From: Minisyncoccia bacterium
GTDB taxonomy: Bacteria; Patescibacteriota; Minisyncoccia; Phycocordibacterales; UBA9973
Assembly (NCBI GenBank): GCA_038244685.1
Contig: JBBRTD010000001.1
Coordinates: 67,009-131,008, forward strand
Direction: 5' to 3'
Length of the DNA: 64,000 nucleotides
In this document: positions 1 through 2,351 of the stretch, one piece after another
Position numbering within the stretch: position 1 is the first letter of the stretch
Layout: the number at the start of each line of letters is the position of its first letter
The notes under the pieces: generated by a model
Told to the model about the DNA's origin: nothing
Seen by the model: only the letters and a program-made list of their open reading frames with translations
Databases searched by the model: none
Translations under genes and position numbers: made by a program

Positions 1-2351
1 ATAACATTCTTATACGCCTTTCCTCTACCCATCAGAATCCCAACAGCATGAAGTGTATAGAACCATCCACGAGTCTGATCAATGGCCTCACAAATAAAGT
101 CAGCGGGATATCCTTTTCCCTCTACAAGTTCTTTGTTTTCAAAAGGATAATGATCTTGAGAAAATGGCATTGTTCCTGAATCAAGCCAAACATCCATAAC
201 CTCCTTAGATCGAACAAGGTTACCACCACAACTACAAACAAGATCTACTTCATCAATAAAAGGACGATGTAGGTCGAGCTCAAAATTTTCATCATGAGGT
301 ATTGGGGTAAAATCAATTTCTCTGGCCTCGGCATTATTAAGATAATTAAAATTCTTAATCATATCAAGTGACTCTTTTGCTGTGTAACCTAAAGTTCCTG
401 CTATCGCAAGCCAACACGGACCACCATGAGTCACAATCAGAATATTTTTTCCTGCATATGTTTTCTCTATGCTATACAAAAATCCCATTGTTCTTTTCTT
501 AACATCATTATATGATTCATTTTCATTTTCAGGATGATAGAAACTCTCGACTGTATTTGGGTAATCCTTATGATACTCCTGCCAAGTCTTACCTTCATAC
601 ATAGGCAGTGACATTTCGTGCAGACGATCATCTATAATTATAGAATCTTTATCGATACCAATTACATTCGCTACTATTTCAGCTGTTTCTCTTGTTCTCA
701 AAAATGGTGAGCATAAAATTAAATCGATTTTTTTATCCTTTAATTCTTCTGCTCCCTTTGCAGCTTGATCTCTGCCCTTTTCTGTTAATTTATCTTGATT
801 ATTATATGAAGAACTGACTAAATCAAGAACATTATTATCTGCTTCACCATGCCTCATCACAAAATATTTATTACCAGATTTTTTAACTTTTGATTTTAAG
901 TCAGCAATACTACCAATAACTTCTATTTTTTTACAATCTTCACAACTCCAAACCGGAAGTGGTGAACCCCAATAACGCTCACGAGATATAGCCCAATCTT
1001 TTATTTCTCGAAGCCAATCACCAAAACGCCCTTCTTTAATATTGGAAGGCTCCCAATTTATTCCTTCGTTCTCTTCTACAAGCTTATCTTTTAAAGCTGA
1101 CATCTTGATATACCAAGAATCACGAGCGTAATATATAAGTGCTGTTTTACAACGCCAACAATGTGGGTATGAGTGCTCAAACTTTTCTTTCTTAAAGAGT
1201 AATCCTCTGTGCGCTAAATCTTTTATAATATCAATAGTAACATCTTCATCTCTGACAAACCTTCCAGTTAAAAAATCAGTCTCTGCCAAAAACTTTCCAT
1301 CAAGACCAACCATGTGATGTTTTGGCAAACCTAATTCATTACCTAAATTAAAGTCTTCAATACCATACATTACAGCAGTATGTACAACCCCTGTTCCATC
1401 TTCTGTCGTCACAAAGCCTGCCCCGTATACCTTAAAAGCCTTTCCCATTTTAAGTTTTTCAGAGTCAGAAATAGTATTTGAAAGATAAGGATATAAAGGT
1501 TCGTATTCTAAACCTATTAATTCCTTGCCTTTAAATTCTTCAATAATTTTATATTCACCCTCCAGCACAGAGATACGAGATTTCGCAAGAATATAAAATT
1601 CATTTTCTTTTTGTATTTTTAAGTAATCAATCTTCTCTCCTATTGCTAAGGCTACATTACCAGGAAGAGTCCAAGGAGTAGTTGTCCAAGCTAATATATA
1701 AGTATTCTCTTGTCCTTTTATTTTAAATTTTGCAGTTACAGATAAATCTTTTACATCAAGGTAACCCTGTGCAAGCTCGTGAGAAGAAAGCCCAGTACCA
1801 CACCTTGGGCACCATGGCACAACTTTGTAATCTTTATAAAGTAAACCTTGATCATTAACCTTTTTAATAACATTCCAAACTGATTCAATGTAATTATTAT
1901 GATAAGTTACATACGGATTTTCACTATCTACCCAGTAGCCAGTACGTTCAGTAAACTTCTCCCAAAGGTCTGTATACTCCCAAACACTTTCCTTGCACTC
2001 TTTATTAAACGAAGCTATTCCGTACTCTTCAATCGCCTTCTTCGAAGATAGACCCAATTTTTTCTCAACTTGAAGTTCTACAGCTAGGCCTTGTGTATCC
2101 CAGCCTGCCTTGCGACGAACATGAAACCCCTGCATTGTTTTATAACGTGGGATTGCATCTTTAAATGCTCTAGCTTCCAAGTGGTGAATTCCAGGCTTAC
2201 CATTGGCAGTCGGCGGACCTTCATAGAAAACGTACTCACCTTTTGGTGAAACTTTGTCTAAACTTTTTTTGAAAGTATCATTCTCTTTCCAGAATTTTAA
2301 AACCTCTTCTTCTCGCAGAGCACTATTTGATTTTGGGTTTTTATCGTCCAT
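1..2351 (-). CDS. ileS: Isoleucyl-tRNA synthetase (type 2), 5' part only (runs off the window). It carries an in-frame histidine-phosphatase-domain insertion (~310-878)
   Basis: Translated by hand from the minus strand. ATG at 2351 gives MDDKNPKSN...[16 protein letters not shown]...[13 protein letters not shown] (HIGH-region). Downstream motifs: [55 protein letters not shown] and [19 protein letters not shown]. No stop codon to position 1. The segment between the zinc knuckle and [16 protein letters not shown] encodes RHGE...[14 protein letters not shown]...IIIDDRLHE...[11 protein letters not shown]. Not in the ORF track because it is truncated at the window edge. Confidence 0.9.
   Translation of the reverse strand, partial: [783 protein letters not shown]

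Follow-up and report, generated by a model that had tools for sequence, protein, structure and literature searches.

Within a 64,000-nucleotide stretch of a Minisyncoccia bacterium genome (assembly GCA_038244685.1, contig JBBRTD010000001.1, positions 67,009 to 131,008; hereafter the window), the gene ileS encodes a type-2 isoleucyl-tRNA synthetase (IleRS2) of the Patescibacteria or Candidate Phyla Radiation (CPR) that contains a complete small histidine phosphatase inside its connective peptide 3 (CP3). This phosphatase belongs to a CPR-wide, IleRS-associated family that is found in three states: (a) as a separate gene for about 190 amino acids (aa) next to ileS, usually squeezed in between argS and an ileS without insert, (b) as a single insert in CP3, which is the commonest state and that of the window, and (c) in multiple copies or in other loops. 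We consider it probable, at roughly 0.6, that the domain is an active phosphatase functionally coupled to IleRS; the figure covers no single substrate. All window coordinates refer to the whole stretch, on the minus strand unless stated otherwise, and residue numbers of the insert are those of the window protein; P and L numbers denote related proteins and loci. The gene and its relevant parts are the following.

1..2351, minus strand: ileS, N-terminal 783 codons of an IleRS2, ending at the window edge before the KMSKS motif (continuous frame, TIGR00392, AlphaFold2 (AF2) model, PDB matches)
2181..2195, minus strand: PGIHH, the non-canonical G-X-H-H form of the class I HIGH signature (sequence read; PMC10485003)
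948..998, minus strand: linker between CP2 and CP3, counterpart of the lining of the yeast tRNA-A76/reveromycin pocket (sequence; PMC7955072)
933..944, minus strand: CEDC, first Cys pair of the CP3 zinc knuckle, residues 470-473, just upstream of the insert (sequence)
309..893, minus strand: inserted His_Phos_1/PGAM-like domain, residues ~487-681, ~195 residues (Pfam, AF2, Foldseek)
831..857, minus strand: MRHGEADNN motif with the catalytic Arg500 and the nucleophile His501 (codon 849-851), both invariant in alignments
678-710, minus strand: catalytic Arg552, invariant
609-632, minus strand: catalytic Glu579, at least 90% conserved, E/D overall
420..440, minus strand: LIVTHGG motif with the second catalytic His642 (codon 426-428), invariant in alignments
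222..236, minus strand: CSCGG, second Cys pair of the CP3 zinc knuckle, residues 706-710, just downstream of the insert (sequence)

In agreement with the preliminary description of this DNA, which had reported a continuous minus-strand frame with genuine IleRS segments, a single stop-free frame of 783 codons runs from an ATG at position 2351 (N-terminus MDDKNPKS) to position 1 and reaches the window edge before KMSKS. The truncated protein scores 644.8 bits against the 621.4-bit cutoff of TIGR00392, the NCBIfam equivalog of ileS, with far lower scores for the valS, leuS and metG models, and tRNA-synt_1 (Pfam PF00133) matches it in two stretches at 4.2e-95. The peptides quoted in that description are all found, namely HSYPHCW (residue 393), IGSIADLK (479), KYFVMRHG (495), LILCSPF (544), ILIVTHGG (637) and TPIPHDENF (682). 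An AF2 model of all 783 residues has a predicted local distance difference test score (pLDDT) of 89.8 and a predicted template modelling score (pTM) of 0.87, the insert being modelled at a pLDDT of about 90 or more, on par with the core. The closest PDB entries are the IleRS2 of Priestia megaterium (8c8u/8c8v) and that of Thermus thermophilus (1ile), at 36-37% identity and a template modelling (TM) score of 0.61-0.68 (query-normalised). The IleRS core, that is the Rossmann fold, the CP1 editing motifs and CP2, is left intact by the insert: the editing motifs WTTTPWTLP and GTGVVH..D lie at residues 222-230 and 319-334, and the isolated editing domain of T. thermophilus superposes on the model with a TM score of 0.87-0.89 (target-normalised). 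The HIGH signature reads PGIHH, while KMSKS, which lies beyond the window edge, is present in a full-length homologue of 68% identity (P0130). In IleRS2 the swapped G/AXHH motif raises the Ki for mupirocin by as much as ~1000-fold and confers hyper-resistance (PMC10485003). When the C-terminus of the window protein was sought via the neighbouring argS, the sole public contig (Logan SRR19962014, L088) was found to stop in the leader upstream of ileS.

The insert itself is a complete, in-frame branch-1 histidine phosphatase, as the preliminary description had stated, with R500, H501, R552, E579 and H642 all in place. Within the segment that it had delimited (residues ~495-685), Pfam gives a match to His_Phos_1 (PF00300) at 3e-35 and 122.1 bits, against a gathering cutoff of 21.7, over residues 497-662 (window 366-863) and profile positions 2-167 of 194. 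In an alignment of 21 sequences the equivalent positions R34, H35, R86 and H176 do not vary at all, and E113 is kept in 90% or more. In a family HMM alignment of 199 domain copies the R-H...R...E/D...H set is kept in virtually all non-truncated copies of every positional class, with one E-to-V and one H-to-Y change as the sole exceptions. A separate AF2 model of zinc knuckle and insert reached a pLDDT of 91.5, and Foldseek assigned the modelled insert a probability of 1.00 for many structures of the PGAM family, foremost Rv2419c GpgP, PspA, PhoE and CobC, followed among others by an Entamoeba phosphoserine phosphatase and a riboflavin-pathway HFP, all with TM scores of 0.72-0.81 (target-normalised) and 22-28% identity. 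A PDB search with the insert sequence yields the same phosphatases. The specific PGAM-family equivalog cutoffs of NCBIfam are all missed (dPGM_arch 92 vs 225 bits, cobC 86.7 vs 162.9, PspA 55 vs 350, sixA 39 vs 74.5, GpmB 47 vs 261), and the substrate is therefore not readable from homology. With a pI of 5.2 and a net charge of -8 the domain is acidic (the median pI of the family is 5.8), and its GC content of 32.6% is unremarkable next to the 32.2% of the window. An intein or homing element was considered and rejected, as the insert borders show no splice-junction residues and Pfam finds no Hint or endonuclease domain.

The insertion splits the CP3 zinc knuckle between CEDC and CSCGG, two Cys pairs that are separated by only ~25 residues in the insert-less CPR relative L083 and that vanish together in some homologues. 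CP3 is the subdomain that follows the CP2-3 linker and precedes the second Rossmann half; its topology varies among IleRSs, and in T. thermophilus it bears a zinc-binding motif (PMC7191050). In yeast IleRS it is the linker ARDWNVSRNRYWG before CP3 that lines the pocket for tRNA A76 and reveromycin (PMC7955072). The insert was originally placed exactly where IleRS handles the acceptor end. This is too strong a statement, because the insert sits in peripheral CP3 and only the preceding linker is documented at the A76 pocket (PMC7191050, PMC7955072). Judged by proximity in the sequence, a position near the acceptor end is plausible. A fixed geometry is in any case not required, because the same domain occupies other loops in relatives.

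Contrary to what the preliminary description had implied, the insert is not unique to the window, since a survey of ileS in related genomes finds it widespread in Patescibacteria databases under generic names. With the insert and its flanks as query, many proteins with both PF00133 and PF00300 were recovered at 40-59% identity from Paceibacterota, Nomurabacteria, Niyogibacteria, Uhrbacteria and Minisyncoccota metagenome-assembled genomes, named 'class I tRNA ligase family protein', 'isoleucyl-tRNA synthetase' or 'histidine phosphatase family protein, partial'. In three homologue searches, namely this one, a survey of valyl-tRNA synthetases (ValRS) and one with the two IleRS flanks joined without the insert, the longest matches were no more than about 1.75-fold the length of the query (577 for 331 aa, 443 for 254 and 348 for 199), and if this reflects a real limit that shuts out full-length IleRSs, presence or absence of the insert is not to be judged from their match lists. 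A scan of species-representative genomes, the counts of which are lower bounds, gave at least 22 loci (L002-L023) that match across the insert, about 20 of them with intact open reading frames (ORFs) of 1150-1490 aa, while a few are frameshifted or cut by a contig end. Almost all bear a Patescibacteria/CPR label, Peregrinibacteria and Peribacteria among them; L010 is labelled Gammaproteobacteria, possibly a binning label. The IleRSs of Firmicutes, Bacteroidota, Chloroflexota and archaea match only the last ~35 residues of the query in the same scan and therefore lack the insert. An exhaustive profile-free search with the insert alone returned 48 cluster representatives at E≤1e-30 and 1291 at E≤1e-10; among the best 150 library representatives ~99 stand in an IleRS context and 43 have no more than 260 aa. 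Among the full-length or near-full-length insert-bearing IleRSs examined, 15 carry G[ILV]HH and 26 PHYGH, so that two divergent subtypes of IleRS2 have acquired or kept it.

Two long-read contigs (L001 and L082, ENA ERZ250395xx/ERZ250394xx), of which L001 terminates in an inverted duplicate, show the insert-bearing ileS frameshifted into 3-5 called genes, which therefore gives rise to spurious 'stand-alone' phosphatase entries in the databases (e.g. P0096). P0096 and P0007 were considered as split or free-standing genes and discarded as fragments of frameshifted ileS in error-prone long-read assemblies.

In full-length representatives, Pfam matches and motif maps give WGxPxP–[phosphatase]–HRPYID–DVWxDSG–DQTRGWF–KMSKS as the commonest arrangement, but the domain is confined neither to this loop nor to one copy. 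Site classes were taken from regular-expression motif maps, with P0151, P0175 and P0135 read by eye. Two tandem copies occupy CP3 in P0213, P0255, P0246 and the Peregrinibacteria loci L020 and L022 (1472-1487 aa; also labelled Peregrinibacteria/Peribacteria). P0175 has one copy after the second Cys pair and another after DxWxxSG, while P0151, P0199 and P0210 (1379-1419 aa) have one before DQTRGWF and another between KMSKS and the anticodon-binding domain, which it directly precedes. P0151 keeps an unbroken zinc knuckle, with its first copy in the loop that comes next. Six proteins of ≥90% identity represent the 1419-aa two-site form, one of them on a 1.06-Mb contig. Domain copies are 30-45% identical overall across ~185 aa, and copies inside one protein only 30-40%. 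Across proteins, by contrast, copies group by insertion position (P0213_1 with P0255_1 at 57%, and P0151_2 with P0210_2), and the multi-copy architectures are therefore old and inherited. The domain also occurs in ValRS: P0135 (1161 aa) has the motif DWCISRQIWWGHRIPVW, scores best against valS models and contains four His_Phos_1 copies, one before that motif and three after it, all of which retain the catalytic R, H, R, E and H. Such inserts are rare in ValRS (4 of 120 matches, a count subject to the possible length limit given above; P0257-P0260 were noted alongside P0135).

The same phosphatase is also encoded as a gene of its own. Short matches to the insert include complete proteins of ~190 aa with the pattern MK.NN.Y..LRHG … GE.RK.N, and in all four cases looked up (P0244, P0165, P0236, P0179) the gene lies beside ileS. 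In the first three (L083, L085, L086) argS, phosphatase and ileS succeed one another on a single strand, with gaps of 1-7 nt to an insert-less ileS of 931-955 aa. In the fourth (L087) the phosphatase gene comes after argS and runs towards a convergent ileS, which is broken into two ORFs. In the window, L001 and L082, argS is followed by an insert-bearing ileS with no separate phosphatase gene between them, and according to a six-frame scan the fused and the adjacent state are mutually exclusive in the loci examined. Together with the adjacency to ileS, this exclusivity is the strongest evidence for a functional link between phosphatase and IleRS. Two further genes of the window bear on these comparisons.

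2692..4509, minus strand: argS, immediately upstream of ileS; the order argS-(phosphatase)-ileS is kept in L001, L082, L083, L085, L086 and L087
49917..50450, minus strand: free-standing His_Phos_1 paralogue of 177 aa, a distant relative of the insert and not its source (Pfam 1.4e-31)

The second of these had been proposed as the paralogue that was captured into ileS. The gene exists, but the proposed capture does not hold, as it is only 32% identical to the insert over 151 aa and the insert has closer relatives elsewhere: the inserts of other CPR IleRSs (up to ~46%) and the free-standing genes beside ileS in CPR genomes. A recent capture of the window paralogue is ruled out by this identity. 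The surroundings of the paralogue (region 49527-50450, minus strand) include, directly after it, a 118-aa ORF with a Pfam match to inorganic pyrophosphatase barely above the threshold (27.6 bits vs 23.5) and, upstream of it, a 168-aa ORF with a sub-threshold likeness to nucleotidyltransferases (Aminoglyc_resit, 20.4 bits vs 21).

That the domain entered several loops, that its multi-copy forms are conserved and that it occurs in a ValRS would be difficult to account for by a neutral fusion. The domain would act as a phosphomonoesterase via a phospho-His501 intermediate, and selection would hold it physically and stoichiometrically tied to IleRS; the substrate is therefore probably something that meets IleRS during aminoacylation. 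As to its identity, we tentatively suggest the 3' end of tRNA, made unchargeable by a 2'/3'-phosphate or pyrophosphate. With more doubt, a nucleotide or other small phosphomonoester may be considered that is made at the synthetic site or inhibits it, while phosphorylated IleRS itself is an improbable substrate. The roles offered in the preliminary description, namely dephosphorylation of the 3' end, hydrolysis of an inhibitor and moonlighting, are likewise hypotheses. The boldest picture, a tentative one, is that of a third catalytic station beside the synthetic and editing sites, evolved repeatedly in CPR, which clears blocking phosphates so that IleRS can go on charging under attack. The flexible CCA end would visit the phosphatase as it does the CP1 editing site. 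The phosphates to be removed could be a 2'/3'-phosphate or pyrophosphate that RNase toxins or enzymes of the toxSAS type leave at the CCA end, or one placed on the KMSKS loop by a kinase toxin. The synthetase would then possess a built-in repair or counter-defence activity.

Several points weigh against a coupling of this kind. The domain is acidic, unlike a nucleic-acid-binding module; its nearest solved relatives, at only 22-28% identity, all act on small metabolites, and the insert attains no NCBIfam equivalog cutoff. The insertion loops vary by lineage, so that no single active-site geometry is conserved, and papers on IleRS-tRNA structures (yeast complexes) report no contact between CP3 and tRNA. 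A repair activity for tRNA-Ile only, and rarely tRNA-Val, is hard to rationalise. To our knowledge no enzyme of the PGAM family acts on RNA ends, and we know of no shared function demonstrated for fusions of the RNase H/acid phosphatase type. Streamlined genomes generally conserve gene order, and adjacency alone is therefore weak evidence.

Part of these points leads to the main rival, which we regard as unlikely but not lightly set aside: an ordinary metabolite or broad-specificity phosphatase (e.g. for phosphoserine, 3-phosphoglycerate or nucleotides) whose gene adjoined ileS in a CPR ancestor and later moved into permissive surface loops, leaving the chemistry of IleRS unaffected and bringing co-expression only, or no effect at all. 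The match to metabolite phosphatases (GpgP, PspA, PhoE, CobC, riboflavin-pathway HFP), the acidic surface, the position in variable peripheral loops and the compact genomes with conserved gene order are all in line with it, and the RNase H/acid phosphatase model NF005567, to which the insert scores 81 bits, is an earlier case of a domain of this type joined to an enzyme of nucleic acids. An internal insertion, however, cannot come about merely because a stop codon is lost, and yet the domain is found in several distinct loops and in ValRS. Multi-copy arrangements are moreover conserved between orthologues (P0213/P0255, P0151/P0210), the fused and adjacent states exclude each other as expected if one replaces the other, and the window genome retains a separate generic paralogue elsewhere, so that the insert is not the cell's only such enzyme.

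It is quite improbable that the synthetase repairs itself, with the insert serving as a protein phosphatase that strips an inactivating phosphate, e.g. from the KMSKS serine, set by Hip-type kinase toxins. HipA and HipT phosphorylate the serine of the KMSKS motif of GltX and TrpS, and the insertion sites cluster near the second Rossmann half, including one just after KMSKS. The PGAM family includes protein phosphatases (SixA, Sts-1, PGAM5), and the GXHH motif of the same enzyme, linked to inhibitor resistance, suggests an arms-race setting. However, the likeness of the insert to SixA is weak and far under the cutoff (39 vs 74.5 bits), no kinase gene was seen adjoining the locus, we know of no kinase that targets IleRS, and the hypothesis is pure inference.

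Still less probable, in our view, is a module without turnover that would serve only to space parts of the structure, to bind tRNA or to sense a phosphorylated metabolite allosterically. As many as four copies in one protein would fit such a role, and the high pLDDT and pTM values of the models suggest rigid packing, but the catalytic residues are strictly conserved in essentially every copy and the acidic surface argues against RNA binding. An artefact, be it an assembly chimera, a frameshift-masked gene pair or a recent capture of the window paralogue, has a negligible chance of being correct. The frameshifted ileS pieces P0096 and P0007 do show that the opposite artefact occurs, but the window frame is stop-free, the same insert stands in the independent genomes of relatives with its junctions kept at 30-68% identity in dozens of assemblies, the paralogue is distant and the GC content of the insert is that of its surroundings.

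Upstream of ileS lies a leader that had been called a T-box in the preliminary description, and the call is borne out, although the element is atypical.

2499..2657, minus strand: T-box-like leader with a truncated Stem I (permissive Rfam RF00230 scan, sequence read, fold)
2635-2637, minus strand: AUC specifier
~2555-2569, minus strand: T-box sequence
2543-2550 and 2506-2512, minus strand: arms of the terminator
2499-2505, minus strand: U-run

A permissive scan with RF00230 gives 45.2 bits (E 6.9e-9 in a 451-nt search), below the gathering score of 93. The leader carries the T-box sequence AGGUGGUACCACGAG, the AUC followed by A in a short hairpin loop, and a long terminator hairpin followed by U7, and folds at -54.2 kcal/mol (z -5.4). 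Where the Rfam model has a distal Stem I of 76 nt, the leader has only a loop of 6 nt, CCAUCA, that holds the specifier. At gathering thresholds Rfam reports no T-box in the window or in 16 related loci, and standard annotation would therefore miss it; among the other insert-bearing loci, L014 alone has the T-box sequence upstream according to a motif search. The leader resembles the ultrashort-Stem-I ileS T-boxes of Actinobacteria, but here an intrinsic terminator follows.

A further IleRS with the phosphatase insert, P0216 (1066 aa, JGI, on an 11.3-kb contig), has an IS200-like Y1 transposase in its CP1 region (residues 340-461) and a GNAT acetyltransferase domain after DVWxDSG (residues 935-1063). 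The loops of IleRS thus seem particularly prone to take up foreign domains.

Aminoacyl-tRNA synthetases (aaRSs) are among the best-studied enzymes, and their extra domains for editing, tRNA binding or signalling have each revealed new biology. In the present case the nesting of an intact phosphatase, its wide conservation, its duplication, its presence in several loops and its interchangeability with a separate gene point to a phosphate-removing step tied to isoleucine charging, a step that is absent from the textbook aminoacylation reaction. Should the phosphatase act on the synthetase itself, or on tRNA ends that are damaged or modified by toxins, it would represent a form of quality control in translation, or of counter-defence, that is new, and could help to explain how ultra-small symbionts sustain translation. 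With a metabolite as substrate, the family would nonetheless illustrate clearly how nature has inserted a domain into an essential enzyme time and again. In either case, pairs of separate gene and inserted domain form natural comparison sets for experiment.

The architecture had been put forward as not previously described, and a full-text literature search indeed found no paper on an aaRS-phosphatase fusion, nor one on an IleRS with GNAT. The words phosphatase, Patescibacteria and CPR are absent from the 2023 paper on IleRS2 signature motifs (379 sequences; PMC10485003) and from a 2026 preprint on the remodelling of the IleRS C-terminus. NCBIfam has a curated model for IleRS with GNAT and none for IleRS with phosphatase; against the former (NF040702, 'ileS_w_GNAT') the window protein scores 232 bits vs a cutoff of 1999, and Pfam shows no GNAT domain in it. 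The combination of IleRS and phosphatase is thus apparently undescribed in the literature while being abundant in public sequence data.

Compared with known IleRS2 enzymes (T. thermophilus 1ILE, P. megaterium 8C8U, the G/AXHH subgroup), the window protein has the same Rossmann fold, CP1, CP2 and zinc-knuckle CP3, but unlike in these its CP3 is split by a phosphatase of ~195 residues. With PhoE of Bacillus stearothermophilus (1H2E), PspA of Hydrogenobacter thermophilus (4IJ5), GpgP of Mycobacterium tuberculosis (Rv2419c, 4PZ9) and CobC (6NRU) the insert shares the fold, the RHG...R...E...H residues, a size of ~190-210 aa and the lack of a dPGM-type C-terminal tail. These are free-standing metabolite enzymes, whereas the insert is embedded in, or encoded beside, an aaRS. 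The bifunctional RNase HI/acid phosphatases of the Rv2228c type (NF005567) likewise join a PGAM-type domain to a nucleic-acid enzyme, but as an end-to-end fusion with another partner, and the score of the insert is below their 326-bit cutoff.

Healing of tRNA 3' ends is carried out in other systems by the HD domain of the Escherichia coli CCA-adding enzyme and by small alarmone hydrolases, which reverse the pyrophosphorylation of CCA by toxSAS; these have the HD fold and not that of PGAM, and the likeness to the insert is one of functional analogy only. Other aaRSs with inserted or appended catalytic domains are known, such as CP1 of IleRS, ValRS and LeuRS, the INS domain of ProRS and the GNAT domain of ileS_w_GNAT; the well-studied ones all act on the aminoacyl ester or the adenylate, whereas a phosphomonoesterase has no obvious substrate in the canonical cycle. 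In these enzymes, as in the IleRS of the window, a hydrolase or transferase domain is nested in a loop of the class I core, and the flexible 3' end of the tRNA can reach more than one site.

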